A stretch of DNA of 64,000 nt from a virus (IMGVR_UViG_3300029796_000300), one strand, 5' to 3'. Counted from the stretch's first letter, positions 1 through 42,348 are shown. Program-made: numbers and translations. Notes: generated by a model not told the origin, from the letters alone.

Positions 1-187
1 AGTAGCTGCGTGCAAAATCCCGGTAAGCGTTGATACTCATTTCACAGTCATCGACCAGTCGATTGATGACGGAGATTTCGTCCTCGGCAACACCGGAATC
101 CTGAAGCTGCTTGAGCTTCTCGTTCACTTCCTCTACGGTCTCACAGGTAGTGAACCGGTGAGAATGGAAATCCAAAACATAAAACAT
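1..187 (-). CDS. hypothetical protein, 3' end truncated by window edge (starts MFYVLDFHSHRF...)
   Basis: Open frame to window start; ATG at 185-187 preceded by GGAGAAG RBS. Confidence 0.45.
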   Translation of the reverse strand, partial: MFYVLDFHSHRFTTCETVEEVNEKLKQLQDSGVAEDEISVINRLVDDCEMSINAYRDFARSY

Positions 188-209
188 AGAAATCTTCTCC
201 TTTCGGTTT

Positions 210-440
210 TCAAATGGTTGTGTTGTAATCCTTCGTCTTCACTTGGATGATAATTTGCGTACATTTGACAGTCACGAATGTCACTTTTGCTTCCAGGATA
301 CCTGGCATAGCGACTGCCGGAATCTGGTATAGGCTGCGAAAATGCCCAATCTCCTGCAAGCCGACGCGAACTACGACAGGGATTTCATCGCTGGCGGCAC
401 CGATTTGGCTGCAAAAGTCGAAAACAGTCAGTTTCTTCAT
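210..440 (-). CDS. small hypothetical protein (MKKLTVFDF...)
   Basis: ORF track 210..455; internal Met with GGGGGA RBS; abuts upstream gene stop. Confidence 0.3.
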   Translation of the reverse strand: MKKLTVFDFCSQIGAASDEIPVVVRVGLQEIGHFRSLYQIPAVAMPGILEAKVTFVTVKCTQIIIQVKTKDYNTTI

Positions 441-455
441 AGGGTTATCCCCCAC

Positions 456-1001
456 TCAGTTCCAGCAGAGATTCCTGATTTCGCGGTCAGACAGACCAAT
501 CGTTCCATCCAGCATCTCCGTCAAGAACTCATACTGCTCGTCGCCAGTCATGCGGTCGGCATACTCCAAAACATTGTGGATAATGCGACCCGCCGTGCCG
601 TCGATGTCGAAGTTGTTCAGAAGCCACTCGTAAGTGCCTTCGAGGCCGCAGGCTTCAGTCTCCTCGTCATCTGTGTTGGCGTCGCCATTTTCAAGAGCGT
701 CAGCAAGGTCGTTGAGCATCTCTTGGATGGCGTCAGCGTCTTCCACCAACGTCTTGATGTCTGGCACACCACTCACGCTGCCCTGCGCATCGACCAACAT
801 CTTGACGTGTTCCTCGGTATCGAAGCTGTCCGCGTAAGAACGGACTTCGGCTGCAAGACTCTCGGCGTCAGATGCGTCTTTCGTCAGAACCGTGAAGGAG
901 AAATCTTCCCCCGCCGGACTGCACTGGTTAAATTCGATGCTATCGCTGTCCATATCGACTGCCCATCCGTAGCTTTCTGCAATTTGAATCATTTTTTCCA
1001 T
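456..1001 (-). CDS. highly acidic hypothetical protein (Asp/Glu-rich; possible DNA-mimic / anti-restriction-like, inference only)
   Basis: 181-aa ORF; many D/E runs; preceded by conserved leader copy 1 and AAAGGAG RBS. Confidence 0.6.
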   Translation of the reverse strand: MEKMIQIAESYGWAVDMDSDSIEFNQCSPAGEDFSFTVLTKDASDAESLAAEVRSYADSFDTEEHVKMLVDAQGSVSGVPDIKTLVEDADAIQEMLNDLADALENGDANTDDEETEACGLEGTYEWLLNNFDIDGTAGRIIHNVLEYADRMTGDEQYEFLTEMLDGTIGLSDREIRNLCWN

Positions 1002-1034
1002 TTTTTAATTCTCCTTTTTTGAAATTTTTTTGAT

Positions 1035-1171
1035 ATATAAAAGCCAGCATCCGTATGGACGCTGACTGAATTTTCTTTGTGTTTGTGATACTTCTTTTGT
1101 ATGGTCTCAGCATACCGGCAGGCACGGAAAACTCCGCATTTTGCAAATTGGAACCTAAGAACCGAGGAACC
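1035..1171 (-). promoter_or_regulatory. conserved intergenic leader element (type B) copy 1: GAACC x3 at 8-bp period, conserved core, covarying hairpin + T-tract
   Basis: Shared sequence with 5 other copies (5037, 8218, 10258, 54764, 59167); hairpin GCCAGCATCC-GTAT-GGACGCTGAC. Confidence 0.6.
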
Positions 1172-1194
1172 TCAAATCTGGAGTGTGAAAAGAC

Positions 1195-1229
1195 AAAAAG
1201 AAAAAGCGCCGCCCACAAAGGGGCGGCGC
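1195..1229 (-). terminator. rho-independent terminator (GC hairpin GCGCCGCCCC..GGGCGGCGC + T-tract on minus strand)
   Basis: Inverted GC-rich repeat followed by T-run in gene sense. Confidence 0.6.
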
Positions 1230-1235
1230 TCAGGT

Positions 1236-1448
1236 TTAAGACTTGGGAATGGCCTCCAGAAAGGGTTCGACCTTCCGGAACACCTTCTCAGAGCAGAGAA
1301 CATTATTTCCGTTGCCAAGGTGCAGTTCCACGCGGTCGCCGATTCTGTTCCAGACCTTCTCCCCGTGCAGTGTATAGACGGGTAGGCTGCCGTATCTGCC
1401 GGCTTCCACGGTATGCAGCAGAGACGTCAGGTTCTTGATTTTATACAA
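1236..1448 (-). CDS. small hypothetical protein (TTG start)
   Basis: 70-aa ORF between upstream gene stop and terminator; GAGGTGA RBS. Confidence 0.35.
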   Translation of the reverse strand: MYKIKNLTSLLHTVEAGRYGSLPVYTLHGEKVWNRIGDRVELHLGNGNNVLCSEKVFRKVEPFLEAIPKS

Positions 1449-2202
1449 GGGCCGTCACCTCTGTCATTTCCCCGTCGCAGCGGAGAATCTTGAAGACTGC
1501 CATATCCACATTGGGATATGCCTCGGCAATCTTCTGGGCGACCTCGGCCTTGGAGGCTGCGTATACGTCCATGATGAGCATGGGACCACCGCAGTCCGCC
1601 CAGTTGCCCTCCTGGGATTCATCCATCGGGTCAGCATCCTCGGACAGCTGCTGGGGGAAGTAGCCCTGCGCGTCGCGCACATACGAGCTATTAAGGAACA
1701 CAAGATAGCGGCATTCCGCAACCTTGTCCCTGACTCGCTCAAAGAAGGCGCTGGCATCGAAGAGCTTTACCGCTTCCTCAAAGTGACTCGCACACTCCTG
1801 CGCAGGGACAAACAGGGCAATTTCGTCACCCTCCGGGTCGGTATCCTCGCCGAACAGAACGGTCCCCCACGGCTTGCACTGTCTGGTCAGTTCCGTTGCA
1901 ATGCTGCGGAGCGCTTTCCTCGCCTTCTGTTTGGCGTCCTTGACAGCAGGGACATCCATCCAGTTACTGTTGAACATCGTCGTGAGGAGCATCCCATCCT
2001 CGCCGCTGTAAGTGACCGTATAGAGATTTGCGTCGCAGCCGGGGCTGAACTGATAGTGTTCGTACAGTTCCTTCACCGCAGCGGGAAGCCGCTCAGAGTC
2101 ACCTGTCGAAAACCCAGAACCGGGATAGTTTACCTCGCCCTCGGCGTTACACCAGTAATACATGGAATCGGTCTGATATGCTTTGTTCAAACTTTTAATC
2201 AT
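1441..2202 (-). CDS. hypothetical acidic protein
   Basis: 253-aa ORF, good RBS context, operon with neighbours. Confidence 0.6.
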   Translation of the reverse strand: MIKSLNKAYQTDSMYYWCNAEGEVNYPGSGFSTGDSERLPAAVKELYEHYQFSPGCDANLYTVTYSGEDGMLLTTMFNSNWMDVPAVKDAKQKARKALRSIATELTRQCKPWGTVLFGEDTDPEGDEIALFVPAQECASHFEEAVKLFDASAFFERVRDKVAECRYLVFLNSSYVRDAQGYFPQQLSEDADPMDESQEGNWADCGGPMLIMDVYAASKAEVAQKIAEAYPNVDMAVFKILRCDGEMTEVTALV

Positions 2203-2232
2203 TTTTCATTTCTCCTTTGTTCCGTATTTTTC

Positions 2233-2778
2233 TTATTCATTGCCCGCCCGGATAACCGCAGCGACGGCCTCTGGCGTCGCGCCGATGGCATCCGTATAGT
2301 TGATGAACTCGTCCTCGGCATAGTCGCGTCCGCCCACGATGTAGGCAGAAACTACCATAGTCCAGAGGTGTTTGAAATCCTCAACGGACATATCGGCTGG
2401 CCGCTTAGCCAGCAGCCTTGGATGGGTCTTGGCAACAATGTCCAGCAGGGCATCTTCGTCGATGGTCTTGCTGTACGCATAGGTCTCCTTGTCGTTCAGG
2501 AGTCGTTCGACCTGTGCGGCCAGGATTTCGACGCGCTCATAAGCGGTCAGCTCCCCGGCACCGTCGTCAGGACCGCAGCCGTTGTCCAGCTGGGCCTGGA
2601 ATGCGGCCAAGTCCTCGTCCCAACAGGCGGTGTGTGCCAAGTAATAATAGGCGTTCTCGGCAGCCACATTGACGTCGAACCTGGAGTCATACTCCAGCTC
2701 GTCCAGTGCCCTGTCGATGACCTCCCGAACCCGTTTAAGGGTGAGAGAGGAGGATTCGTAGTCTTTCAGCAATTTCAT
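2233..2778 (-). CDS. hypothetical acidic protein
   Basis: 181-aa ORF. Confidence 0.6.
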   Translation of the reverse strand: MKLLKDYESSSLTLKRVREVIDRALDELEYDSRFDVNVAAENAYYYLAHTACWDEDLAAFQAQLDNGCGPDDGAGELTAYERVEILAAQVERLLNDKETYAYSKTIDEDALLDIVAKTHPRLLAKRPADMSVEDFKHLWTMVVSAYIVGGRDYAEDEFINYTDAIGATPEAVAAVIRAGNE

Positions 2779-2806
2779 GCTTCTGTCTCCTTTCGAGTCA
2801 AGAAAA

Positions 2807-4237
2807 TCAGTTGTTGGGCTTCAGAATATCGGGTATCCAGTTTTCAGCAGATGGCCTGCGGAGACTCTCCGGCACGCAATCATAGAACGCTGAATTTTCC
2901 GCCACAGCCATGTCGATAATCCAGAAATCGTCACCATTCTGCATCACGTCGATGCTCCACTGGCCTTGCAGGTCAAGCGCCGGCAGGAATTCCCGAATGT
3001 GTTCCACCACGGAATCGACATTCTCATGGTAGCGCCGCATCAAGGTCGCTTCGTGACTTTTGAAAATCACATAATCGTGCATCTGATGCGGACTGTTTGC
3101 GTCCGAGCATGAACCAAAGCGATTGAGCATAGTCTTCGGCTCCCAATAGGGAGAGACACCGATGACAGCATCGCTGTCACAGTCAACAAATACGCGATAT
3201 TCCGTATGAAGCGGCAAACCATGATAGATACAGGGATTTCCCTCTTTATCTGGAATGAATTCCCGCACGACCCACTCATTTGTCGTTGAGACCCCATAAA
3301 TGCAGGGAAAGCTAAGGGGACCGGCCATCTGTAACGCCTGATGGTGGATGTAGAGCAAATACTCGCCAAGCTCTCGAACCTCTTTTTCTCCGTGTACCAG
3401 ACAATTCCGGAAGTCGAACTTCGATGAATAGGTGCCGGTTTTCACGAAGTAATCCCGCTCGTCATTCAGGCGAAATACAGCGTGCGCCCAGTTATCGACG
3501 ATTTGGATGGTCGAAGGCGTTAGGCTGTGATAGTCCAGACGAGTCAGCTGTAAGAGCGTCAGGGGGACCTTGGCTATCGTCGTTGCCGGAATCCGGAAGA
3601 ATCCAGAATCCCGGTAGGCACTCACAAGCTCCGGGAACCAATGTCCGATGGAGTTGCGATTCTGCCCGATGATGCGGTAGGCCAGCGCATCAAGGTCAAG
3701 GATGTCCAGTCCCTGCCGAAAGCGGTTATACGCATCCCGACGGTCCTTCGGCGTCTTCCCGTTCTGCATCTTGTCGTAGTAGAACAGGAACACAGCTGAG
3801 GCGGTGATGTCAAGGTCTCGCTTCATCAGTTCCCCACTCAGCTGCGGTCGCAGCGAAGCGGGAATTCGCAGCAGGTCCTGATTGGTGACAGGAGCATTTT
3901 TCTCCGGTGCGTTGGAAAGCGATTTTTCAATTTTGCCTGTTTTCCCATCATAAGTGTAGGTCAGCGTCTGCCAGATAAGCTCCTTCACGATGCGTTCCGT
4001 AAGAGCTTTCAGCTCTTCCGGGCTGTCGTCGCCGAGCCGCTCGTTTTTCGCCGCTGCCTGCCTGGAATTGACCTCGAAAATGCTTTCTGGCTCAGTCTGC
4101 AACGCAGCTTTGGAATAAGCCTTCTCGAAGGCATCCAGTGCATCAGGACTGACGCGCAGGATTTCCGCGATTCGGTCTCTGCTAATGTAGAATTTCTGTG
4201 CGGATGTCTGAGCAAACAGATTGTCTAAACCAAACAT
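2807..4237 (-). CDS. putative ATP-grasp-like enzyme (C-terminal ...YRVFVDCD...WIIDMAVAENSAFY resembles ATP-grasp fold)
   Basis: 476-aa ORF; motif resemblance only, no database check possible. Confidence 0.55.
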   Translation of the reverse strand: MFGLDNLFAQTSAQKFYISRDRIAEILRVSPDALDAFEKAYSKAALQTEPESIFEVNSRQAAAKNERLGDDSPEELKALTERIVKELIWQTLTYTYDGKTGKIEKSLSNAPEKNAPVTNQDLLRIPASLRPQLSGELMKRDLDITASAVFLFYYDKMQNGKTPKDRRDAYNRFRQGLDILDLDALAYRIIGQNRNSIGHWFPELVSAYRDSGFFRIPATTIAKVPLTLLQLTRLDYHSLTPSTIQIVDNWAHAVFRLNDERDYFVKTGTYSSKFDFRNCLVHGEKEVRELGEYLLYIHHQALQMAGPLSFPCIYGVSTTNEWVVREFIPDKEGNPCIYHGLPLHTEYRVFVDCDSDAVIGVSPYWEPKTMLNRFGSCSDANSPHQMHDYVIFKSHEATLMRRYHENVDSVVEHIREFLPALDLQGQWSIDVMQNGDDFWIIDMAVAENSAFYDCVPESLRRPSAENWIPDILKPNN

Positions 4238-4249
4238 CTTCAGCCCTCC

Positions 4250-4998
4250 TTATGAGATTTGAGAATCGGCGTTCTTCACATAGTCTTTCACTTTCTTCTG
4301 AAGCTGGTTGACCTTGCAAATCACGTTCTCCTCGTCGTCGATATCCTCGTAACTGCTGTCACAGCCGTCTACCACATTACCGTTTGCGGCAATGTAGAGC
4401 GTATCGAAGGCAATGCTGTTGTACTCTGTGGAGTAATCCGTTACCAGCTCGTCCATGTCGGTCCTGAGCACCTCCGGTGCTCTTACGCCGATGCCGTTCT
4501 TGTTGGCACGTCCGGTATTTAACAGCCAATTCAAATCGTCATCCTTGACCGAATGCTGTTTACCCTGGCCGAAGAAGGACAAGCCGCTCAGAATTTTCGC
4601 GTTGTCATTGTCGCGGAACGCCTCGTGGAACATATCCACAGAGACATCGACCTCGCACATATCCTGCTCTTCCATCTTAGCATACGATTCCAGCAGCGTC
4701 AGCGCGAGGTCGCGCATCTGCTCCTTCGACGTCGCTCCGTTGGTGGCGACATAGAAAGCAGCCGGCATCGTGTCATAACGCTCCGCAAGCTCAAAGTACC
4801 GCTTGATGGCCGGAACATTCAAAGACGGCTCGCCGCCCGTGAAAATGACGGAAGCAGGGTGGATATGCTTAGCGATGCCCGACAGAACTGCTGTTGAGAT
4901 GTCAAGATTTTGCGCATCTCCGCGCAGGCAGTGGTTGCATTTCATGTTGCAGCGACGAGTGACCTCAATGGCGAGGTAATTTACATAAATCTCCATTT
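4250..4998 (-). CDS. radical SAM domain protein (CNMKCNHC = CxxxCxxC; TGGEP motif), small single-cluster type
   Basis: Cys triad 13 aa from N-terminus; ATG at 4996-4998 downstream of leader copy 2 with AAAGGAGAAATG RBS. Confidence 0.8.
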
Positions 4999-5036
4999 TC
5001 ATTTCTCCTTTTTTGTGATGGTTATGTGATATATAA

Positions 5037-5176
5037 AAGCCAGCACCCACGCGGGCGCTGACTGAACTTTCTCTTTTGTTTGTGATACTTCTTTGGTATG
5101 GTCTCAGCATACCGGCGGAAGTGGAAATTGCCGCATTCACCTTCCAAGAACCTGAGAACTGGAGAACCGGAGAACT
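5037..5176 (-). promoter_or_regulatory. conserved leader element (type B) copy 2; hairpin GCCAGCACCC-ACGC-GGGCGCTGAC (compensatory changes); GAACC/GAACT x4 at 8-bp period
   Basis: Alignment with other copies. Confidence 0.6.
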
Positions 5177-5182
5177 GCAAAG

Positions 5183-5216
5183 AAAAAGCGCCGTCCATTA
5201 CGGGCGGCGCTTTTTC
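5183..5216 (-). terminator. bidirectional-looking intrinsic terminator (GCGCCGTCC...GGGCGGCGC flanked by A/T runs)
   Basis: GC-rich palindrome with flanking T/A tracts. Confidence 0.55.
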
Positions 5217-5217
5217 A

Positions 5218-6135
5218 TCAAATTTTGTGGGTGCAGTACGGGCAGCGCTCGTCTGTCGCGTAGCAGATGCACTCGGTATCATCCTGCCAGGGGTGGCAGG
5301 TATTGATGCGGAACCGTGCGGAAAGCGCGGTTTCCAGATAGTCGGCCACAGGACCAATGGCGGCCATATCCCAGCGAAGCGGAAGCCCGTCGTCGGCATC
5401 CTCCTGTAAGGAGTGTTCGCCGGCGGCTTCCTTCGCCTCGTCCGTAGCGTCAGACAGGAGGCCCTCCGGAAGCGCGTTGACGTGTTCCACGGAAAGCTCA
5501 TTCACAGCTGCGAGAAGAGCCTCTTTCGGCGCTTCCCCGTTTACGCTGTGGCCTGTGACAACCGCGCAGATGAAGTCGAACACTGCGTTGTCGATGCGGT
5601 CGCCGGCCTCGGCGAGGAGGTCGTTGTCCTTGACAGGCTCCCTGCGGATGGTGCCATGCGTCCACGGCCCCGTGTAGGTGCCGATGCTTGGCAGGCGCTC
5701 CAGCAGGGCTGCTTTCATGCCGTCAAGGTACGCCTTGTAGTGCTTCCTCTGGAAACCCTCCGAACAGGGGTTATCCTTCTGAAGCAGTTCCACGGCATAG
5801 GCCCAGTCGCTGTCCTCAATGCCGATGTAAAACAGGCTGCTTTCGAGGATGACGCGCACATTGCGGCCAAGCCACTTGTCCTGCTTGACACGCGCAAAGC
5901 TGGGATACCTGTGCGTGAAGTTCTCCACAAAGCACTCCAGCACATCCTCCAGCTCGTTCGCACTGCCTTCGTCATCGAAGAGCCAGCCGTTGCCGGACAA
6001 ATCCTTGGCGCTGAGGTCTTTCTGGAGGATGGTATCCTCACAGTCATCCTCGCGGCGAAGCACTGTGGTATAGTCGCTGTCGATATAGAACAGGCCCTCA
6101 TACGGACCGCTCACACAAACATTACCTTTTCCCAT
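5218..6135 (-). CDS. hypothetical acidic protein with C-terminal Cys cluster (CHPWQDDTECICYATDERCPYCTH)
   Basis: 305-aa ORF. Confidence 0.6.
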   Translation of the reverse strand: MGKGNVCVSGPYEGLFYIDSDYTTVLRREDDCEDTILQKDLSAKDLSGNGWLFDDEGSANELEDVLECFVENFTHRYPSFARVKQDKWLGRNVRVILESSLFYIGIEDSDWAYAVELLQKDNPCSEGFQRKHYKAYLDGMKAALLERLPSIGTYTGPWTHGTIRREPVKDNDLLAEAGDRIDNAVFDFICAVVTGHSVNGEAPKEALLAAVNELSVEHVNALPEGLLSDATDEAKEAAGEHSLQEDADDGLPLRWDMAAIGPVADYLETALSARFRINTCHPWQDDTECICYATDERCPYCTHKI

Positions 6136-6173
6136 TTTTTCATTTCTCCTTATTGTTAAAAAATCGTAGATTC

Positions 6174-6377
6174 TCAGATGTCGTCATCACCGACATCGAA
6201 CCCCAAATGACAGAATCCAAACTCGTCGGACAGCCAGTTGGAAATCGTGTCGAGCCATTCTTCCCTACTTGCAAAATGGGATTGGTCGAATCTGCTTGGC
6301 AGCTCAACTTCCTTCGGCAGGGAGGCTCTTGCCTCCCTGTCGCCGTCGGTGTCCCAAAGGATATTGCGGATTTTCAT
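6174..6377 (-). CDS. small hypothetical protein (MKIRNILWDTDGD...)
   Basis: Internal Met of ORF 6174..6410 with AAAGGAGAAATAATG RBS. Confidence 0.5.
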   Translation of the reverse strand: MKIRNILWDTDGDREARASLPKEVELPSRFDQSHFASREEWLDTISNWLSDEFGFCHLGFDVGDDDI

Positions 6378-6388
6378 TATTTCTCCTT

Positions 6389-6793
6389 TCAGTCGGCGGA
6401 CACATACCACCAGCCGGTGTATCTGTCTTCTTCGTGATTTCTTTCGTCCTCCTTGTGGTCGTAGTAGCCGGTGTGGAGGTCAAAGGCCTCCCCTCGTTCG
6501 TTGTAAAGCTGCCACAGGAGGTCGCACAGCGCGTTCGCGGCAGATTCTGTCTTGCACAGAATCTGGTCCCCATCGCTCCAGACTTCGCCATCGGAATAGT
6601 CGCGAACCCGCGCACAGATGAACGAAAAGAAATCCTTTTCTGCATAGCTGTCGCAGTTCACGGAGATATCGAGCGTTTTGCTGACATTCTCAATCTCGTC
6701 GTAGTGTCCTTTGACGAGATAGTTGTTCACGATGAACTGCATCCGCTTGGAGCACACGCCCACATGAGTGCAGTTGAGACAAGTCTTCTGCAT
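6389..6793 (-). CDS. hypothetical Cys-containing protein
   Basis: 134-aa ORF in operon. Confidence 0.55.
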   Translation of the reverse strand: MQKTCLNCTHVGVCSKRMQFIVNNYLVKGHYDEIENVSKTLDISVNCDSYAEKDFFSFICARVRDYSDGEVWSDGDQILCKTESAANALCDLLWQLYNERGEAFDLHTGYYDHKEDERNHEEDRYTGWWYVSAD

Positions 6794-6794
6794 A

Positions 6795-7460
6795 TCAGCA
6801 ATCCTCCTTCATCATGAAATCCTTCATAGCGTAGTCCTGGCAGCCGTCATCGCCCAGTCTCGGAGCCTTTCCGGTGACGAAGGGCAGCTTGCAGATGCCG
6901 TGCGGATTGAAGACACAGAACTCCGTGTCGCATTCCGTACACAGCTTCTCCAGTTCGGCGTAGTTATCCCGTTCCTGGTCGGAACTGCACTCAATCTTCG
7001 TCAGATATTTCAGGCTGGCATTCATGGTATTCCCGGTTTTGAGCAGGTAGTTGAACATACCGTTTCCGGTATCGTCCCTCTCCACGCTCAGGAACCTCAC
7101 GGTTGCAGCCTCAGAACGAGGCAGCAGCTCGACGATTTTGACCGTGGCACGGGAAGCATTCTCCGTTCCAAAGCCATAGGTACAGACATCGCCGGCCTTC
7201 AGCTCCTGTGCAGGCTGATTGTGACGGCAGGTATCGGCCTCGGAGTTGTAATCGCAGTTCTCCACGCACTTGTCCTCCGGATGCTGGCAGGCGTCACAGA
7301 GCATCAGCCGCTTGCCGCAATGAGGGCAGAACGCCTTGTAGCCGTCTGCGGCCACATTCCATCGCATCTCAACCTCTGCTTCGCAATGCGGGCAGACCTC
7401 TGTCACGATATACTCGCGGTCTTTGCAGGAACCGGTGGTTTTCTCACTAATATTAGTCAT
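6795..7460 (-). CDS. Cys-rich (multiple CxxC) putative zinc-binding protein
   Basis: CPHCEAE...CPHCGKR...CTECDTEFC motifs; second ATG has better RBS spacing. Confidence 0.6.
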   Translation of the reverse strand: MTNISEKTTGSCKDREYIVTEVCPHCEAEVEMRWNVAADGYKAFCPHCGKRLMLCDACQHPEDKCVENCDYNSEADTCRHNQPAQELKAGDVCTYGFGTENASRATVKIVELLPRSEAATVRFLSVERDDTGNGMFNYLLKTGNTMNASLKYLTKIECSSDQERDNYAELEKLCTECDTEFCVFNPHGICKLPFVTGKAPRLGDDGCQDYAMKDFMMKEDC

Positions 7461-7484
7461 AATTCTCATTCTCCTTCTTTTTTG

Positions 7485-8183
7485 TCAGTCACGCCAGTAT
7501 GCGCCGTCTTTCGCTTCGCCCTTCGGGAAAACGGTATACTCTGTTCCGTGCAGCACGATGTACTCATGGTTCAGAACATTGACAGAATCTCCAACGTCAA
7601 TGGTCTGAATGTTGAATACCTGCTTTGTGTCCAGACAGACGTCTGCCTTTGTCGCCGCAATGCAATTTCCGCCGTCCCAAACGGAGACATAAGGGATGTT
7701 GCGAACGATGGAAGGCTCTTCCTCAGTGCTCTGCTCAGCTTTCTCCAGAGCTGCCCGTACCTCGCCAATCTGCCAAGAAGGCATCAACGGGAATCCGGCT
7801 CTCGTATAGAGACCGCCGCCCGCCTCCGCCTTCTCCAAGGCGGCCTTTGCGGCGTCCTCGGATGCGAAGATGGTGTACTGGCTGACCTCGATACCGGGCA
7901 AGTAGGAAAACGTCTTCGTTTTACCATCAGAGCATTCGACTTCGGTCATTCCCGAATAGGCAACGCCCGTCCAGCCAAACCAACCGGGTTCCACAAATTC
8001 GGAGAAGGTCACAGTAGACACCGTTACTTTTACGACCGCCAACTCTCTCGTGGACGGACGATACAGCCGACCGTATTTGTTGACTTTCTGCTTAAAGGTG
8101 ATTGCGTACACCTCGGAGCCAATGCCGATGGGAACGCCGTCAGCAGTCTTGCACGCTGGTAAGAGATATGCCTTGTTCTTCAT
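7485..8183 (-). CDS. hypothetical protein
   Basis: 232-aa ORF, first gene after leader copy 3. Confidence 0.6.
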   Translation of the reverse strand: MKNKAYLLPACKTADGVPIGIGSEVYAITFKQKVNKYGRLYRPSTRELAVVKVTVSTVTFSEFVEPGWFGWTGVAYSGMTEVECSDGKTKTFSYLPGIEVSQYTIFASEDAAKAALEKAEAGGGLYTRAGFPLMPSWQIGEVRAALEKAEQSTEEEPSIVRNIPYVSVWDGGNCIAATKADVCLDTKQVFNIQTIDVGDSVNVLNHEYIVLHGTEYTVFPKGEAKDGAYWRD

Positions 8184-8217
8184 TTTTTTCGTTTCTCCTT
8201 TTTGTTTATGAAATTTT

Positions 8218-8359
8218 TATATATAAAAGCCAGCATCCGCAACGGACGCTGACTGAACTTTCTTTGTGTTTGAGATACTTCTTTTGTATGATTTCAGCAT
8301 ACCGGCAGAAGAGAAAAAATCACCTATTTCCTGATGGAGAACCTAAGAATATGAGAACT
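8218..8359 (-). promoter_or_regulatory. conserved leader element (type B) copy 3; hairpin GCCAGCATCC-GCAAC-GGACGCTGAC
   Basis: Alignment with other copies; GAACC/GAATA/GAACT at 8-bp period. Confidence 0.6.
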
Positions 8360-8378
8360 CGATTGTGGCAAAACATGG

Positions 8379-8413
8379 AAAAAGCGCCGGCGGATATTTT
8401 CATCCACCGACGC
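8379..8413 (-). terminator. intrinsic terminator downstream of 8422..9417 gene
   Basis: Hairpin GCGCCGGCGGAT..ATCCACCGACGC followed by T-tract in gene sense. Confidence 0.55.
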
Positions 8414-8421
8414 TTCAGTTG

Positions 8422-9417
8422 TTAAGTCGCGTGGAGCTTCCACTCGCTCTTCTCGCGGTCCACCGTATAGATGAATGGCAGCGTGCCAGCCATCTCCCAG
8501 TTGATATACTTGCTGGGTTCCTGCGTTGTGACGACGCGATTGATGACGATGTGGCCTTCCCTGTCGGACTCGACATACTTGCCGTCACCGTCCTCGATAA
8601 AGGAGTTGACGCTGAAATCCTGACCGGAACGGTACTGCTTCAGCTCAATCGCCATCCAGATGACCTCATGGAAGCCAGCCTTAGCGGCCTCAATGGTATC
8701 GGCAGCGAATTTGTACCCGTAGCAGCCATCGCCGTCTTCCAGCATGATGCTGTTCACATATTTCTGCTCTTCCGCATCCCACTCCTTCAGGAGCTTCTTG
8801 TAGTCCATCTTCTCGTAGGTAGGACGGATGATGCGAAGCACTGCTTCCTGCTCGTCCTTTGATAAGGGGCGCACTGCCTCTACACAGACATCACCGAGCC
8901 ACAGAGATACCGTGAGGTATGGCTTTGCGAGCTTGGTGCAGTATTCGTCTACATCCGCATAGATGTTACAGTAGGAATCGTTCTGCTCCGTTTCAAAAAA
9001 GGTTCCGAATAGTCGGTCCACATCGGAAATGCCTTCCAGCATGACGTTCCACGTCTGCGTTTCATCGTCAAATAGGAAAGCCTCGTTATTATAACGGTCA
9101 ACGCAGAAATCAGAGTCGGTGATTTCTGCTCCCATGAGCTTCAGGGAGTCGATTTTTGCCAGTGACTTTCCCTTCTCTTCCTCTGAGCTTTCAACGAGAC
9201 GAAGAGATGACGTAAGGAAATTTGACCGCTTCTCGTCCTGAAACAGCACCTCTACCATCTGGAGGTAAGGCTTGGTCTTCAGAAGGGCCATGATTCTGCC
9301 CGTCTGGTTATGGCGCTTGTTGCCGGAGGTGATGACCTGTACGGCGTCGAACAGGTGAAGGTTGATGCCATTGACATCCTTTACTTCGCTCCACTTCGGC
9401 ATGATTCTATTATTCAT
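8422..9417 (-). CDS. hypothetical protein
   Basis: 331-aa ORF. Confidence 0.6.
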   Translation of the reverse strand: MNNRIMPKWSEVKDVNGINLHLFDAVQVITSGNKRHNQTGRIMALLKTKPYLQMVEVLFQDEKRSNFLTSSLRLVESSEEEKGKSLAKIDSLKLMGAEITDSDFCVDRYNNEAFLFDDETQTWNVMLEGISDVDRLFGTFFETEQNDSYCNIYADVDEYCTKLAKPYLTVSLWLGDVCVEAVRPLSKDEQEAVLRIIRPTYEKMDYKKLLKEWDAEEQKYVNSIMLEDGDGCYGYKFAADTIEAAKAGFHEVIWMAIELKQYRSGQDFSVNSFIEDGDGKYVESDREGHIVINRVVTTQEPSKYINWEMAGTLPFIYTVDREKSEWKLHAT

Positions 9418-9434
9418 GTTTCATTTCTCCTTTT

Positions 9435-9848
9435 TTAAGTCCACATCAAATTTATGCCGCCAACCTGCTCCACACGCTCTGTGATTTTCTGCGCGTCCTT
9501 CATACCGGGAATCGCGAATCTTGCGTTCCAAGCACGAATCAAATCCGACAAGGTTTTATCCTTGACGGGCACGGCAAAATCACAGCAGAAGTTGTATAGG
9601 GGCTGGTCCAGCATTTCCTCGTACACATCTTCGGTTCCTTCCACAATACGAATCCGCTTGGCTGTATCGTGGATGTTGATGCGTCCGAGGTAGAGATGTC
9701 CGTGCAGTTCCTTCAGAGCCTTCAGCTTTTCTCGGTTCAGGTCGTTCAGAACACTGTCGGCCTCCGGCAGATTCAAAATGCCGCCGACGGAACGGATATG
9801 CTCCATCTCGGCTTGCATAAGCTGGTCGATTTTTTCCTGTGCGTTCAT
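9435..9848 (-). CDS. hypothetical protein (MNAQEKIDQLMQ...)
   Basis: Internal Met with GGAGAAAAC RBS. Confidence 0.5.
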   Translation of the reverse strand: MNAQEKIDQLMQAEMEHIRSVGGILNLPEADSVLNDLNREKLKALKELHGHLYLGRINIHDTAKRIRIVEGTEDVYEEMLDQPLYNFCCDFAVPVKDKTLSDLIRAWNARFAIPGMKDAQKITERVEQVGGINLMWT

Positions 9849-9861
9849 GTTTTCTCCTTTC

Positions 9862-10227
9862 TCAAGCTGCCATCTGGTACAGCCATGCTTCAAAGTCTTC
9901 ATAGTCCATCAGCCGTCCATCCACCTCGACGAATCCAGGCTGCGTTGTGCCGCGAACAACGGAAAAGGAATCTCCGCCGCCACAGAAAACGCGAATGTTC
10001 GTTCTGGAGATGCTCTCGCAGCGCAAGAAATACGAGCCGAGGCGTTCCCAAATTCGGGACATCTCCTCGTCGGTCGCTTCCCAACTGCGGTTTTGGCTGG
10101 TACGGACCTTTGTTGCGGATACGGACAACTCAACCTGCTCCGTATCTTCCGGCAGCCCAAGCTCCGCGCAGACCTCTTTCCACTTTGTTTCGTCGCTGAA
10201 ATCCCACTTAAACAGCATTGCTTCCAT
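9862..10227 (-). CDS. hypothetical protein (MEAMLFKWDF...)
   Basis: Internal Met with AAAAAGGAGAAATAAAC RBS; first gene after leader copy 4. Confidence 0.55.
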   Translation of the reverse strand: MEAMLFKWDFSDETKWKEVCAELGLPEDTEQVELSVSATKVRTSQNRSWEATDEEMSRIWERLGSYFLRCESISRTNIRVFCGGGDSFSVVRGTTQPGFVEVDGRLMDYEDFEAWLYQMAA

Positions 10228-10257
10228 GTTTATTTCTCCTTTTTCGTGTTTTTTTGA

Positions 10258-10398
10258 TATATAAAAAGCCAGCGGCATGATAAAACCGCTGACTGAACTT
10301 TCTTTGTGTATGTGATACTTCCTTTGTATGCTCTGAGCATACCGGCAAATATGGAAACACGCCTATTTTAATGTTGGGAACCTGAGAACCGAAGAATA
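10258..10398 (-). promoter_or_regulatory. conserved leader element (type B) copy 4; hairpin stem CAGCGG / CCGCTG with 10-nt loop
   Basis: Alignment; GAACC GAACC GAATA at 8-bp period. Confidence 0.6.
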
Positions 10399-10465
10399 CA
10401 TATCGTCACGCGCAATGTCCGCTTCACGCTGGCGGAACTGCTCGATTGGATTTAAGAAACGGAGA

Positions 10466-10500
10466 ATAGCAAAAAACGCCGCCCATCTGGGCGGCGTTTC
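10466..10500 (-). terminator. intrinsic terminator after sigma factor gene (GCCGCCCAGATGGGCGGC + TTTTTT)
   Basis: Perfect GC hairpin followed by T6. Confidence 0.7.
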
Positions 10501-11622
10501 TCATTCAAGAAAGTCCTGAAGCATCTTCCCTGCCTTTCCGTTGCGTAGCTTATCGAGTGTTTTATCTGTAACCTGACGGACACGCTCTCGCGTTAAGTCC
10601 ATTTCGTCCCCGATTTCTTTGAGGGTATAAGCACAACCATCCTCCAATCCGAATCGTAAGCGAAGCACACAGGCGTCTCGTGCGGGCATATCGTGCAGGA
10701 TTTTGTCCATCGTTTCCCATAGTGCCTTCCCTGACGTTGAAATTTCCGGGTTATCCCACTCGTTATGGCTTGGGATGAATTCCGAAAGCGGTGTGTTGGA
10801 ATCGCTTGCGGCGTCCGAATTGACGGGCGCATCCAACGAGTCCGGCTTCCGGTACTGGAGCGAGTGTTGGATGATGCGCAGTTTTTTCTGCTGCTCCCTT
10901 TTTGAAAGGGAATCCCACGCATCCCCCTCCATGTATTTTGCGATTTCTAAAGGGTCATCACAAGGTAAGCCTTTTTGTTGCATTTGTTCTTTTGCATTAT
11001 TGACGCTCCGCCTGCCCTCCGCAACATAGATGGGCTTGCGAATGGCTGGGTCCGTCGTGGCAAGCGCTCTTGTGATGTTTTGCCTTATCCAGAAGGTTGC
11101 GTAGGTGGAAAACTTCACATTCCTCGAAATGTCAAAAGAGTCGATGGAACGCATGAGGCCAATGTTGCCCTCCTGAATGAGGTCCATGAACACCATAGAA
11201 TCGGCTGAGTTTATATATTTCTTTGCGATGGACACAACAAGCCGAAGATTGCCCTCAACAACCTTATCTTTCGCCCGTCTTCCTGCTTCTATGGCCTTCA
11301 TCAGGTCTTTCTTGATTTCGGGGTCAACTGCATTCCCGCTCTCCTCGGCAATTACCCGCAGCGTTTCGAGCTGTTCGGCAGCGGCATTCCCCTTCTGCAC
11401 TTTTTCAATGCAGCGATTCGCTTCCACCTGCGGCATAATGGGAATGCTGCCAATTTGGCTGAGATACATCGCCACATGGTCGCCGATATTTCCCGGCTGC
11501 TTCGCTTCGGTCTCCTGTTCATTCGAAGCTGTGATTTCTTCTGTTTCAGGCTGCCTTTCAATGGCTTCATAGGCAAGCGCACGGTCAGCGGCTAAATTAC
11601 TGGTATTCGTGATGTCAACCAC
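10501..11622 (-). CDS. RNA polymerase sigma-70 family sigma factor (regions 1.2-4; housekeeping-like paralog carried on element); start codon uncertain (GTG at 11622 or ATG at 11472)
   Basis: Region 2 motif LIQEGNIGLMRSIDSFD...FSTYATFWIRQ; region 4 HTH LKEIGDEMDLTRERVRQV. Confidence 0.8.
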   Translation of the reverse strand: MVDITNTSNLAADRALAYEAIERQPETEEITASNEQETEAKQPGNIGDHVAMYLSQIGSIPIMPQVEANRCIEKVQKGNAAAEQLETLRVIAEESGNAVDPEIKKDLMKAIEAGRRAKDKVVEGNLRLVVSIAKKYINSADSMVFMDLIQEGNIGLMRSIDSFDISRNVKFSTYATFWIRQNITRALATTDPAIRKPIYVAEGRRSVNNAKEQMQQKGLPCDDPLEIAKYMEGDAWDSLSKREQQKKLRIIQHSLQYRKPDSLDAPVNSDAASDSNTPLSEFIPSHNEWDNPEISTSGKALWETMDKILHDMPARDACVLRLRFGLEDGCAYTLKEIGDEMDLTRERVRQVTDKTLDKLRNGKAGKMLQDFLE

Positions 11623-11641
11623 CCCCCTTCACTGAATGCAG

Positions 11642-11670
11642 CAATTATACCACACAATAGCTTACTTGTC
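11642..11670 (-). promoter_or_regulatory. consensus sigma-A type promoter TTGACA-N17-TATAAT with TGTGG extended -10 (type A family)
   Basis: rc reads TTGACAAGTAAGCTATTGTGTGGTATAAT. Confidence 0.6.
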
Positions 11671-11720
11671 AATCAAAAGGCCGCCAGCGATGTGCTGACA
11701 GCCTTCCAGGATGGGAGAGA

Positions 11721-12224
11721 CTATTTTTGCTGTTGTGCGCGGAGTTGCTCCACCTCCGCCCTCCAGCGCGGTGTGGCCGTACTGATTGCCTCAACGGTAC
11801 TTGGCGTGGTGGAGAGAGCCAGAATATCGGCTTTCGTCTTCACTCCTTCCAGACGGCGACACATCTCCTCGTAGGTCGTGCTGTTGTCTGCCGTAATCCA
11901 ACAACCGCAGATGTCGTTTGAGCCGTCATCGTTGTGCCGGCTGGCGGTAGTGGGAATCTCAATGCACCAGAGGGCGAACTCGGAATATTCGGTGCTGCGG
12001 AATACATCCTGCACAAAGGGGTTTGTTTTCTTGAGCTGCTCCACAAGAGGACGCGCGCAGTTTTTTTCCTGTTCATCCCTCCTTTGCGCAAGCCATATAT
12101 TTTGCAATTCGAGAAAATGCGTTTCCTCGCCGCTTAATCTTTTTCCGTCAATTGCCTTCTGAATGAGGTGTTCTCCCCGTTCCAAAAGCTCTTCAATCGT
12201 TGGGAACTTACCGTTTTCAAACAT
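11721..12224 (-). CDS. hypothetical protein
   Basis: 167-aa ORF. Confidence 0.55.
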   Translation of the reverse strand: MFENGKFPTIEELLERGEHLIQKAIDGKRLSGEETHFLELQNIWLAQRRDEQEKNCARPLVEQLKKTNPFVQDVFRSTEYSEFALWCIEIPTTASRHNDDGSNDICGCWITADNSTTYEEMCRRLEGVKTKADILALSTTPSTVEAISTATPRWRAEVEQLRAQQQK

Positions 12225-12229
12225 TGATA

Positions 12230-12757
12230 TTACACCTCCGAAATTTCGATTCCGTACTTTTCCAACATGAGTTTGCGTTTCATAAGATACTTTTCGGTTC
12301 GTTTTCCCTTCGCGTCTTCCACGATGCGTTTACCGTTGCGAAGGTATACGAAATCTGCCTTATAGACCATTGGGCGAACCCGCTTGCCATTTGGCCGTGT
12401 ATAGCCCTCGACCAGCGTGAAGTCCTGCTGGAGCCGCAGGTCCTGGATTGCACCGCCCTTGTACTGCAAATACAGTTCATCGAAGCGCCGTGCCTCCCGC
12501 TTGCTGGGGAATTTCACGGTTTCTCCATCCACCACGCGAATGACCTTTACATTGCGATATTTGGATGGCTCAGCAGCGTCCGCTTCTTTCGGCTGTTTTT
12601 GCCTTTTCTGTGCTTCCGGCTGTTTTTTTGCTTGCTGCTGTTTCTGTTCGCGCTTCTGCTCGTCGAGCTTTGCACGCACCTGAATCTGTGCGGAAAGCGG
12701 CAGGCTATTGATGTCAATACCCACCTTCAGTTCCTCCGCCTGTTTGTGGCGCGGCAT
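12230..12757 (-). CDS. DUF1064-like phage protein (KYRNVKV...YKADFVY...IVEDAKG motifs), basic/Q-rich N-terminus
   Basis: Motif resemblance to DUF1064 family. Confidence 0.6.
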   Translation of the reverse strand: MPRHKQAEELKVGIDINSLPLSAQIQVRAKLDEQKREQKQQQAKKQPEAQKRQKQPKEADAAEPSKYRNVKVIRVVDGETVKFPSKREARRFDELYLQYKGGAIQDLRLQQDFTLVEGYTRPNGKRVRPMVYKADFVYLRNGKRIVEDAKGKRTEKYLMKRKLMLEKYGIEISEV

Positions 12758-13116
12758 TTTGGCTGCTTCCTTCTCGCAGCAGAATCAAATTCATGACCTT
12801 CCATACCGTCCAGATACACAGATGGCGAACTATGCTTCTGCTGGTGCCGTGCAGGTCGGCGATTTGCGAAAACGTCATTCTGTCACGAAAATACTTTTGG
12901 ACGATATCGCGGTTTCGCTCAGGAAGTGTGTCCAGCGCTTCATCGAACATCTCGTTAAAGCCCGGTGTAAATGAAATTTGATTCTTACCCCAGGCTGAAA
13001 TTTGATTCTTACACCAGGCAAAGGATGTATCGTACATAATGGCCGCCTTCCGCCACTCCTCCGGGGCAAACTCAGGCTGGTTAATCTTGTCTGTCGTTTG
13101 TTTCTTTGTCATTTTT
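12714..13116 (-). CDS. small sigma region-4-like HTH DNA-binding protein; contains in-frame tandem repeat (AWCKNQIS AWGKNQIS)
   Basis: RNRDIVQKYFRDRMTFSQIADLHGTSRSIV resembles sigma-70 region 4. Confidence 0.5.
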
Positions 13117-13357
13117 GTTTTTCCTTTCTCCGTCGCTGCAAAAACTATTTGGAAATGTCCGATGCTGCGGCATGAGAGATGTACCACCGCAAACCCAACC
13201 GTCTGATTGCGAAAATACACAGCCCTCACATCGCACCACCGGCACGGCATCCACAGTGGGGGCTTTTTCGAGCAAGCCAAGTAAGCCGTTCCAACCAGCA
13301 CAATACGCCGCAGGGAGAACATCTTTGCTGCACCGCCCCACGCCCAATTTATCAATA

Positions 13358-14614
13358 TCAACCAGATTCATGGTCAGCACCTCCGTCCATCTTGGCCCCG
13401 CAATCCTCGCAGTATTTTTTGGTAGGCTTGTCCCAACTGCCCTCAGTGGTAATGACAAAGCCGCACGCAGGGCAACACCACTCGTCCCCGCCAAGATGCG
13501 CCCAGCTGGTGTGCATTACCGGGGCCACGTCAGTGGTGAGAAAATCTCTTCGTGAGCTGCGCCACAGCATGAGCAGCATCTCGCTGACCGGTCTGGTTCG
13601 GTCCTTCCTCACGGCTTTCCTCACGCATCGCAGATGCCCGCCGTCCGGGCAAAGCACACCGACGCCGTATGGCACAGTATCCTTCACCGCTTCGAAGACG
13701 TCTGCGGGCATAACGTAGTAGTTGTAGTCCGCGATGAAGTTGTGCCCGTTAGGAGATTTGAAATCCTCCACAGAGGACTTGACCTCGTAGGCGTAGAAGT
13801 CCCCCTTCTCAATGCCGGAGGTCGAATTGTTGAGCGGCTGAAAGCGCATATAGTCCACGCGGATTTTGTGGTTCGTAGAGTAGTCGAATGTGACCTCTCT
13901 CGCCCAGTAGATGCGTGGGTCGTTGCGCGGGTCGATGTATCGCTCCAGCATGGCAGAGAGCTGGCGAGTGTGTTCCTTCCGGGTGAAGGCATCACTCGTT
14001 TCCGGACAGAATTGAGCTGGCTTTCCAAGGATGAAATGGAACGGCAGAGCCTTTTCCAGTACGTCGATAATATTCTGAAGGGTCCCCTGCCCGCATTGGC
14101 GCAGATTCTTCAGTTTGCCGCTCTCTATCAGTCGAACAACATCGCCGATACTTTGGGCACCACTGAACATAAGGCAGTTCTTGGTGCGAGTCGAGAAATT
14201 GAGGCACTGAAACGGAACAGAATCGCACAACTCCTCGATTTTTTTCCAGTTGCCATTCTCAATGGCCTCCTTCAAAGTAGAGGCGAGAGGGCTGCCTGCA
14301 AACCGGCGCATTTCTTTCAGGATACCCCCCGCATATTTGGGGTGACGCAGCCTCCTTATGGCGAGGTCGAAGCAAGAGTAGAACTTGCCGATGTCAATTT
14401 CCAGTGCGTTTGCGCATTGTGTTGGTGTAAGACCGTCGCGGTAGCGTTTTAAGATAGCTTCCCGCTCCAACTCAGGGAATGTGGCGATGGCAGCGTCTAC
14501 AGCTGCGTCGAAAGAGTCAGAGAACTCAGCACACGGCATACACAAGCAATCCTGCATCAAATTCTTTCGCCATTCTACTGACGAGCGAAGCAGGAAACGC
14601 TCCTCAGTGTTCAT
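13358..14614 (-). CDS. multidomain protein: N-terminal sigma region-4-like HTH, RpoA alpha-CTD-like HhH segment, C-terminal PD-(D/E)xK-like nuclease motif, C-terminal Cys4 ribbon
   Basis: EREAILKRYRDGLTPTQCANALEI; LNFSTRTKNCLMFSGAQSIGDVVRL; GDFYAYEVKSS; CPACG...CEDCG. Confidence 0.6.
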   Translation of the reverse strand: MNTEERFLLRSSVEWRKNLMQDCLCMPCAEFSDSFDAAVDAAIATFPELEREAILKRYRDGLTPTQCANALEIDIGKFYSCFDLAIRRLRHPKYAGGILKEMRRFAGSPLASTLKEAIENGNWKKIEELCDSVPFQCLNFSTRTKNCLMFSGAQSIGDVVRLIESGKLKNLRQCGQGTLQNIIDVLEKALPFHFILGKPAQFCPETSDAFTRKEHTRQLSAMLERYIDPRNDPRIYWAREVTFDYSTNHKIRVDYMRFQPLNNSTSGIEKGDFYAYEVKSSVEDFKSPNGHNFIADYNYYVMPADVFEAVKDTVPYGVGVLCPDGGHLRCVRKAVRKDRTRPVSEMLLMLWRSSRRDFLTTDVAPVMHTSWAHLGGDEWCCPACGFVITTEGSWDKPTKKYCEDCGAKMDGGADHESG

Positions 14615-17117: not shown

Positions 17118-17640
17118 CTTATTTTTTCCTTTCACGCTGCGGGTGCAGTTTCCTGTCATTCGATGGGGGACGTCAACTGCGTGATGCTCCGTTTGCGGGG
17201 GGCTGCGGTATAGCTACCTGTCATTTGGTGGGGGACGTCAACCTGTCAATCCGGATTGCAATTTAATCGTACGGTATAGCTCCCTGTCATTTGGTGGGGG
17301 ACGTCAACTGAAGTTGAGTTTGCCGAGTATATTCCAAACGACAAACCAAAAAGGTAAATCAGCACTTACCGCTCACGCGGCGTTACTGTGGTCCACATCG
17401 CCAAGGATATACCGGGTTTGATGGTACGCACACTTCTCCTTCCCCTCAGAGATGTTTAATACGCACCCGCAGAGCGGCGGACTTGTGGAGTATCCGCCGG
17501 TGCCTATGTATTCCGGCATATCGTAGTCTTGCGGCTGAGGCTTATTGACGAGGCTTACTCTCCTTGCGGGTCATAAGCCACACCAAATGACAGGAGGCTG
17601 AGCCGGAGTTTCCGGCGCACCCGCCCGCCATTCGGCGGGG
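17118..17640 (-). ncRNA. putative IscB omega-RNA region upstream of iscB-like gene (shares conserved core with region 31189-31470)
   Basis: Structured, non-coding, homologous motif ...ctcagag.tgtttaa...ccgcagag...ccgccggtgcctat... shared with second IscB locus. Confidence 0.45.
17139..17313. repeat. three direct copies of 26-bp unit CCTGTCATTTGGTGGGGGACGTCAAC at ~70-bp period; unit is complementary to CACCAAATGACAGG at 17586-17599
   Basis: Direct reading of sequence. Confidence 0.75.
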
Positions 17641-18699: not shown

Positions 18700-19010
18700 A
18701 GAAAACCAAAGATTTGGTAAATCAGCACTTACCGCTCACGCGGCGTTACTGTGGTCCACATCGCCAAGGATATACCGGGTTTGATGGTACGCACACTTCT
18801 CCTTCCCCTCAGAGATGTTTAATACGCACCCGCAGAGCAGCGGACTTGTGGAGCATCCACCGGTGCCTATGGATTCCGGCATATCGTAGCCTTGCGGCTG
18901 AGGCTTATTGACGAGGCTTACTCCCCTTGCGGGTCATAAGCCACACCAAATGACAGGAGGCTGGGTCGGAGTTTCCGGCGCACCCGCCCGCCATTCGGCG
19001 GGAGTGCAGA
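18700..19010 (-). ncRNA. orphan near-identical duplicate (~300 bp, a few SNPs) of the omega-RNA-like segment 17341-17640, not adjacent to any iscB
   Basis: Near-identity over ~300 bp incl. CACCAAATGACAGGAGGCTG at 18946. Confidence 0.45.
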
Positions 19011-25911: not shown

Positions 25912-25957
25912 GAAATCACCGCCTTTCATACTTGATTATACCATATTTTCGTGGTTT

Positions 25958-26967: not shown

Positions 26968-27002
26968 TGGAAAATCACATCCTCCGTTTACTTTATGCTT
27001 AT

Positions 27003-42331: not shown

Positions 42332-42348
42332 CTCTTCTTTACGCTTAT

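Follow-up and report, generated by a model that had tools for sequence, protein, structure and literature searches.

Leader-headed operons encoding a radical-SAM enzyme and a predicted ATP-grasp protein in a probable conjugative megaplasmid of the human gut

Sequences repeated upstream of several variable operons have been described in conjugative plasmids of the pLS20 family, where they are named EGeRS1 and EGeRS2 and where one type blocks read-through (Val-Calvo et al. 2021, PMC8708921). We analyzed a 64,000-nucleotide stretch of DNA filed in IMG/VR (IMGVR_UViG_3300029796_000300; hereafter the window), in which positions 2,807-8,183 belong to operons that are headed by a repeated leader and that encode a radical S-adenosylmethionine (radical-SAM) enzyme, a predicted ATP-grasp protein and several acidic or cysteine-rich proteins. 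We propose, with a probability of roughly one half, that this segment belongs to the accessory regulon of a ~328-kb conjugative megaplasmid of Oscillospiraceae, that the regulon is of the establishment type, and that the two enzymes act as separate effectors.

By analogy, EGeRS would be the closest described counterpart of the leader set of the window (PMC8708921). In both, paralogous sequences lie directly upstream of the ribosome-binding site (RBS) of several operons of a Gram-positive conjugative plasmid, and the regulated cargo is variable and largely of unknown function. The terminator hairpin predicted in the leader would also block read-through, as EGeRS1 does. The likeness is one of architecture, with several differences: the leader is ~180 nt long and EGeRS span 420-750 bp, tandem 8-nt repeats and a single clear intrinsic terminator mark the leader, its regulon lacks the hallmark gene ardC, and it heads ERF, primase and pilin operons as well.

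A second point of comparison is the leading-region anti-defence island, whose hallmark genes are ardA, klcA, psiB, ssb, acr and orphan methyltransferases (Samuel et al. 2024, PMC11541004). None of the 10 cargo proteins matched any of these genes in Pfam, NCBIfam, PHROGs or PADLOC. The leader of the window also differs from such islands in having no Frpo/ssi-type single-strand promoter: folded as single-stranded DNA (ssDNA), it forms a pair of short hairpins in addition to the terminator upstream, and no Frpo-like promoter hairpin with paired -35 and -10 elements. Gene orientation cannot discriminate here, since all genes over the 64 kb lie on one strand.

Operons, leaders and the element that carries them

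The credible genes of the window are all encoded on the minus strand, and every window coordinate below refers to that strand. We found three consecutive units, A, B and C, each with a leader at its head, with A and B closed by an intrinsic terminator; the first-pass annotation had proposed three leader-delimited transcription units, and this layout bears it out. Unit A begins with the leader at 8184-8390, contains genes at 7485-8183, 6795-7469, 6389-6793, 6174-6377 and 5218-6135, and ends in a terminator at ~5180-5212 that consists of the hairpin GCGCCGCCCGTAATGGACGGCGC followed by TTTTTC. In unit B, the leader at 4997-5179 is followed by the radical-SAM gene (4250-4996), the gene for the 476-amino-acid (aa) ATP-grasp protein (2807-4237), three further genes (2233-2778, 1441-2202 and 1236-1448) and a terminator at 1204-1231. 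Unit C has its leader at 1002-1200 and a gene at 456-1001, and continues beyond the start of the window.

The leader is a paralogous sequence with six copies in the window. Copies 1 to 3 head units C, B and A, respectively, and copies 4, 5 and 6 are located at ~10228-10420, 54728-54925 and 59125-59330. Every copy comes after the intrinsic terminator of the preceding operon and has the same order of parts, namely 3-5 tandem 8-nt RGTTCYYN repeats, a core of ~70 nt that is near-identical in all six copies (GCCGGTATGC...GTTCAGTCAGC in copy 3), a hairpin and an RBS. The hairpin is terminator-like, with a GC-rich stem of 10-12 bp followed by TTTTATATAT. It was found in all four copies of the scanned stretch 1-12500 (at 1042-1067, 5038-5063 and 8228-8254 in copies 1, 2 and 3) and aligns in 6/6 copies, with few compensatory substitutions between them. 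All six copies end 20-35 nt ahead of the RBS and start codon. The repeat arrays lie at ~5140-5179, 1150-1180, 8330-8365, 10375-10405, 54880-54925 and 59285-59325, and the repeats are more degenerate in copies 5 and 6 (GGAACY/TATTCC). The 8-nt period suggests that the ligand may be a multimeric RNA- or ssDNA-binding protein, and that the repeats are probably not a duplex-DNA operator.

Leaders also occur far from the cargo units. The operon headed by copy 5 encodes an ERF recombinase and a primase, with pilin genes downstream on the same strand, and copy 6 heads an operon with a VWA/CobT-like protein. Since the leader heads ERF, primase and pilin operons too, it is a control element of the whole plasmid and not the marker of an island. 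No Rfam family covers it, and the sub-threshold Rfam matches near 1191-1272 and 5179-5270 coincide with the inter-operon terminators. An antiterminator pairing of the loop of the first leader hairpin with the terminator arm was checked by eye and set aside, as it had no supporting covariation.

A different leader was found in a set of deeply diverged plasmids (lineage 2; GC 45-49%, contigs up to 389 kb) that carry a repeated leader of their own upstream of the radical-SAM and ATP-grasp genes. It consists of a sigma-70-like promoter (TTGCCA-n17-TAGAAT), ~110 nt, a terminator and an RBS. Its architecture is thus the same as that of the window's leader and its sequence is unrelated; homology between the two leader types was considered and rejected because the alignment was unconvincing.

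The window also contains a second repeated upstream element, a promoter-like, near-consensus sequence TTGAC-n17-TGTGGTATAAT with seven copies (11635-11675, 21275-21315, 26994-27034, 29296-29336, 41686-41726, 42340-42380 and 62407-62447) and an extended -10 in the best of them. One copy sits ahead of a sigma-factor gene. The plasmid encodes a 373-aa sigma-70-family factor, a Sigma70_r4 protein, a 418-aa protein with an RNA polymerase alpha C-terminal domain and an S1-domain protein, the genes for these transcription-related proteins being located at 10501-11622, 12714-13361, 13358-14614 and 40390-41643. These proteins are candidates to act on the leaders.

By its gene content, the window is part of a conjugative element, in agreement with the first-pass annotation. 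It encodes components of a type IV secretion system (T4SS), namely a VirB4-like ATPase (36937-39429), a coupling protein (T4CP; 42465-44741), a CHAP/phage-lysozyme hydrolase (44750-46075) and VirB2-type pilins (50198-51391). We found no phage structural protein among ten large unknown open reading frames (ORFs) of the window with PHROGs. Because of the T4SS genes and the zero structural matches, a phage origin was rejected for this virus-database entry. A locus with 99% identity is present in an Oscillospiraceae isolate, on a contig of 570 kb. The exact 476-aa protein was recorded in 3030 blocks of an assembly collection. Among them are two contigs, 328,932 and 328,075 bp long, that come from independent samples and suggest a replicon of ~328 kb. 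Megablast of positions 1-12000 against phage and plasmid collections gave no match, and neither an oriT nor a relaxase was located in the 64-kb window, where MOBH-type relaxases were not searched for.

The element resembles the Hodor megaplasmids, which are conjugative and occur in the human gut (PMC12934698), in its size of >300 kb, gut habitat and high prevalence, in its VirB4 and VirD4, Phage_lysozyme2 and TnpB genes, and in being misfiled in viral databases. It differs in GC content, which is ~52% in the window and 47.1% and 44.6% in the published groups; since this is unlike both groups, the Hodor class can be assigned by resemblance only. The Hodor paper mentions neither the enzymes nor the leaders of the window.

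Two orphan enzymes in unit B

The radical-SAM protein (4250-4996) contains the motifs CNMKCNHC and FTGGEP and matches Pfam PF04055 with 35.4 bits against a cutoff of 29.5. The compact enzyme that the first-pass annotation had recognized is therefore present, with a corrected length: the start codon is likely the ATG at 4996, which gives 248 aa and not 249. Gene callers agreed on this start in three of four metagenome loci (L001-L003), and the fourth (L004) was given a 296-aa product from an upstream start. The cluster-motif residues C16, C20 and C23 and the residues G54-G55-E56 are invariant or nearly so, and among 32 aligned family members C212 is the sole further conserved cysteine. As only C212 is conserved beyond the cluster cysteines, an auxiliary cluster cannot be bound, and the 32 aligned members lack the C-terminal Cys-rich domain with auxiliary [4Fe-4S] clusters that marks SPASM/twitch enzymes.

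The structural model of this protein (predicted local distance difference test, pLDDT, 93) was closest to peptide-modifying SPASM/twitch enzymes, for example EpeE/YydG, with which it shares the radical-SAM core, CxxxCxxC and GGE. Unlike these enzymes, it is only 248 aa long, has no auxiliary-cluster cysteines, and has no precursor peptide, RRE domain or transporter near it. The model thus places the protein as a radical-SAM enzyme in the structural neighbourhood of SPASM/twitch proteins, without an auxiliary cluster. The hydrogen donor of EpeE is Cys223 (PMC13012085); C212 is likewise the single conserved cysteine outside the cluster, and its equivalence to Cys223 is a lead only. All NCBIfam matches were far under their cutoffs. 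A viperin identity was rejected, as the PADLOC and NCBIfam matches were far below cutoffs and covered only the generic N-terminal 90 residues.

The radical-SAM family is small, with 224 clusters. Within the plasmid lineage of the window, synonymous diversity (pS) of the gene was 0.117, compared with 0.009-0.04 in seven other genes and 0.08-0.11 in the genes starting at 6174 and 6795 (g6174 and g6795). The gene is therefore a divergence hot spot in its lineage, yet purifying selection persists. Among plasmids that are otherwise ~99% identical (L004, L007, L052 and others), its identity ranged from 84 to 100%. The pS, well above that of most neighbouring genes, points to allele exchange by recombination. 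At one locus (L208, 1552-7696), a 52%-identical homologue lies between AcrVA2-like and NADAR genes on one side and a UvrD helicase gene on the other, and gyrase and NrdD are encoded on the same contig; at no other locus seen was a counter-defence neighbour recognisable.

The 476-aa protein (2807-4237) was invisible to sequence search. It had no match in Pfam (E<=0.1), NCBIfam or PADLOC, nothing meaningful in PDB by sequence or by profile, and in PHROGs only phrog_12834, a family of unknown function. The earlier ATP-grasp-like call was confirmed by the fold. An AlphaFold (AF2) model built with 34 homologues reached a pLDDT of 85.5 and had Cdc123 as its best structural match, and Foldseek matched it to ATP-grasp proteins of jumbo phages and giant viruses. 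Its two-domain module, RAGNYA plus protein-kinase-like, matches solved ATP-grasp enzymes, and on this model the protein has the ATP-grasp fold, with a helical N-terminal domain followed by an R2K/Cdc123-like catalytic module at ~residues 210-460.

We mapped the features of the R2K clade (Burroughs, Zhang and Aravind 2015, PMC4431377) onto the model and the alignments. K266 ends the RAGNYA domain's strand 2 (model strand 263-267) and K273 lies in the flexible loop 268-278 that follows; together they form the R2K signature of two lysines, and neither residue varies across 34 close and 15 remote sequences. R325, the arginine typical of amide-forming ligases, is in the first kinase-like strand, and the acidic residues D430 and D442 lie within the final two strands. 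No substitution occurs at K266, K273, R325, E346, D430 or D442 down to 25% identity. The fold and the occurrence of the family in mobile elements and phages are further points in common.

The protein departs from the R2K clade in having no match to D123, R2K_2 (PF18299) or R2K_3 (PF14243), and in a helical N-terminal domain of its own of ~200 residues, restricted to its close relatives. In addition, its final motif is DxA instead of ExN or DxN, the usual ExN being D442-M443-A444 with Ala replacing Asn. The loop sequence is GTYSSKFDFRN, in which no clear ssxGbGl motif is seen. The weak Pfam matches of a remote family member (P0458) were to exactly the R2K_2 and R2K_3 models (E 0.026 and 0.028, both below cutoff). 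In view of the two-lysine signature, the invariant residues and these sub-threshold matches, we read the 476-aa protein as a divergent R2K-type ligase, possibly of a fourth, undescribed R2K family.

The ATP-grasp family comprises at least 1954 clusters at 90% identity and 933 at 50%. Its members occur in Oscillospiraceae, in Lachnospiraceae, in some Actinomycetota and on many phage-like contigs. Neither enzyme fits a housekeeping pathway, the assignment against which the first-pass annotation had set its proposal, and the best NCBIfam matches are far below cutoffs. The two orphan enzymes most likely modify proteins or peptides.

Pairing of the enzymes and possible roles of the cargo

In the window, 12 nt separate the radical-SAM gene from the ATP-grasp gene. 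Lineage 2 keeps them adjacent, with proteins ~40% and ~46% identical, respectively, to those of the window. In 60 loci of this lineage the spacing is 224 nt, and in other loci other genes or an insertion sequence (IS) have been inserted. Lineage-2 loci that keep both genes have no leader between them and form one leader-headed unit, and two loci (L092 and L104) have lost the ATP-grasp gene. A third lineage has a looser arrangement, with a 29%-identical ATP-grasp relative ~5 kb downstream. We then counted pairing per cluster at 70% identity, with the partner sought within 10 kb. The partner was present in 3/41 ATP-grasp clusters and 3/25 radical-SAM clusters, and all three paired clusters represent related megaplasmid lineages. 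It was absent from all 33 ATP-grasp homologues at 50-65% identity, which are the closest outside the protein's own lineage, and from the neighbourhood of radical-SAM homologues at 64%, 52%, 47% and 47% identity. The radical-SAM gene occurs without the ATP-grasp gene in L207, L208, L209 and L006. Some database proteins of ~400 aa (P0005, P0125 and P0132) match the radical-SAM enzyme in the N-terminal part and also match the C-terminal part of the ATP-grasp protein, and are either fusions by deletion or artefacts of assembly or gene calling.

The modification module that had been read into this pair is thus a synteny trait of three lineages that is missing in the closest relatives. A module of this kind would be a two-step pathway in which both enzymes act on one substrate (a protein, a peptide or a nucleotide-derived compound), one activating or ligating it and the other carrying out the radical chemistry. 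GRASP-with-SPASM systems are such radical-SAM/ATP-grasp pairs in peptide maturation, and the tight spacing in one operon, the order and co-orientation kept in lineage 2 despite its divergence and 224-nt gap, the lack of an intervening leader there, and the relative retained in the third lineage all agree with a shared pathway. However, the partner is missing within 10 kb from 38/41 ATP-grasp and 22/25 radical-SAM clusters, homologues closest to either enzyme included, and insertions and some ATP-grasp losses have separated the two in lineage 2. We also looked for a conserved third gene beside the ATP-grasp gene and for a precursor peptide and found neither, and the two families differ ~tenfold in size. 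Since the nearest relatives of each enzyme occur singly, an obligate two-enzyme pathway is unlikely, and we regard the two-step pathway as a whole as improbable. The comparative data suggest that pairing is a trait of one plasmid clade, in which cooperation may occur and is not required. The first-pass annotation had further proposed a leading-region anti-defence island in which acidic DNA mimics block restriction or CRISPR right after entry. This idea, which we consider quite unlikely, runs into the finding that Pfam, NCBIfam, PHROGs and PADLOC gave no known anti-restriction, anti-CRISPR or defence family among the 10 cargo proteins, and that neither ArdC nor any other anti-restriction protein was matched in the scanned proteins of leader-headed operons. 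As ssDNA, the leader forms no long hairpin of the Frpo type that would mimic a promoter, it is shared with ERF, primase and pilin operons, and the window has no located oriT. The DNA-mimic part draws on charge alone: the cargo is significantly acidic (median isoelectric point, pI, 4.85 in the region versus 6.42 elsewhere in the window; Mann-Whitney p=0.017), and the charge of the 456-1001 protein lies within the range of Ocr and ArdA. The NADAR and AcrVA2-like neighbours of one radical-SAM homologue and the multi-operon establishment regulons with repeated upstream sequences in Gram-positive plasmids (PMC8708921) speak for the idea. An anti-defence role is a plausible hypothesis.

It is similarly doubtful that the cargo serves the plasmid's own biology, through modification of surface, T4SS or replication proteins, or consists largely of hitch-hiking accessory genes. 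Co-regulation with core functions through the shared leader speaks for this reading. Hodor-type plasmids carry large surface-protein modules, and the genomic contexts of the ATP-grasp family are highly varied and include nucleotide-metabolism gene sets of large elements. Purifying selection and very high prevalence speak against neutrality, and the ATP-grasp family occurs patchily in phages, plasmids and chromosomes, a pattern that suits conflict genes better (PMC4431377). The establishment-type regulon with two separate effectors remains our preferred account. Under it, the operons would be expressed by regulated read-through of the leader terminator, which would switch them on together with plasmid transfer and establishment functions. 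The ATP-grasp enzyme would be an ATP-dependent ligase that joins an amino acid or a peptide to a target protein, with the family-specific N-terminal domain recognising that target, and the radical-SAM enzyme would attack a C-H bond of a peptide or protein. The two would share an operon by chance in this plasmid clade, and the acidic ORFans would be establishment or host-interaction factors, possibly with counter-defence factors among them. Several observations weigh against this account. The 12-nt gap and the shared operon kept at 40-46% identity could signal cooperation, and the D-M-A motif in place of ExN makes ATP-grasp activity probable from the model and not certain. No canonical sigma-70 promoter was found within the window's leaders. 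Units A-C hold no known anti-defence, establishment or substrate gene, and the GC mismatch limits the placement with Hodor-type plasmids to an analogy. A bolder version, of which we are sceptical, is that the two enzymes are an undescribed protein-modification toolkit of gut megaplasmids, leader-gated at transfer, which covalently modifies a recipient protein, for example a defence or translation component, and so secures establishment; the 476-aa family would then be the fourth of the R2K families and have a defined target in bacteria.

Human gut metagenomes contain the plasmid extremely often, as seen from the 3030 assembly blocks with the exact ATP-grasp protein, and the 933 clusters of the ATP-grasp family, which reach across Clostridia, Actinomycetota and phage-like contigs, have neither a Pfam model nor an assigned function. 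Cdc123-type biochemistry is poorly understood. An R2K-like enzyme from bacteria that is tractable and has a definable target would help here, and would also inform how megaplasmids manipulate their hosts. The repeated terminator-gated leader offers a handle to define a whole regulon in an element of the uncultured type.

Other cargo proteins and genes of the window

Within-lineage ratios of nonsynonymous to synonymous diversity (pN/pS) were 0.13-0.43 in 10/11 genes, and the cargo ORFs are real genes under purifying selection. Apart from the two enzymes, the cargo proteins matched no family of known function in Pfam, NCBIfam, PHROGs or PADLOC; PDB searches with four of the ORFans gave no match, and no paralogy was found among the cargo proteins. 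Homologues of several of them are scattered through related plasmid lineages, which fits an accessory pool that is presumably shared and shuffled.

In unit A, the first gene (7485-8183) encodes a 232-aa protein without a family match; in a third plasmid lineage, a homologue with 37% identity is encoded 3 kb upstream of the radical-SAM gene. The description of the next two products as multi-CxxC proteins holds for one of them. The 224-aa protein (6795-7469) has 18 Cys and four CxxC pairs of zinc-ribbon type, with an N-terminus that matches a YnfU-type zinc ribbon below threshold, and the 134-aa acidic protein (6389-6793), which has no family match, has 7 Cys and a single CxxC. They are followed by a 67-aa acidic protein (6174-6377; pI 4.3) and a 305-aa acidic protein (5218-6135; pI 4.48). 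The latter ends in a Cys knuckle at its C-terminal side, has no family or PDB match, and has a 42%-identical homologue in lineage-2 loci.

Downstream of the enzymes, unit B encodes a 181-aa acidic protein (2233-2778; pI 4.42) with no significant family match, a 253-aa acidic protein (1441-2202; pI 4.43) with no family or PDB match, and as its last gene a 70-aa basic ORF (1236-1448) that was gene-called in three of four related metagenome contigs (L001-L003). The 181-aa protein of unit C (456-1001) is the most acidic of the cargo (pI 4.05, net charge -35) and contains a ~113-aa module that is common elsewhere as a stand-alone small protein or fused to small domains. The four proteins that had been singled out as small and acidic (456-1001, 1441-2202, 2233-2778 and 5218-6135) are indeed so, with pI 4.05-4.48.

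Among the recombination genes named beside the cargo in the first-pass annotation, ERF (52985-53773), UDG (26287-26967) and DUF1064 were recovered, and ASCH gave only a sub-threshold match. The primase is encoded at 51430-52914. The window also carries IscB and TnpB insertions. Two IscB-like ORFs, one with RRXRR and HNH (29896-31188) and one with RRXRR only (15723-17159), adjoin three matches to HEARO, the IscB omega-RNA (17386-17549, 18749-18968 and 31248-31471), and a 287-nt direct repeat with 97% identity (17353-17639 and 18716-19002) holds two of the omega-RNA copies. The TnpB gene is located at 24790-25929. An ATLF (anthrax-lethal-factor-like) metalloprotease domain occurs together with an SLH domain at 59918-61024, and ATLF domains at L006 8520-9599 and L209 9043-10044 adjoin a radical-SAM homologue.

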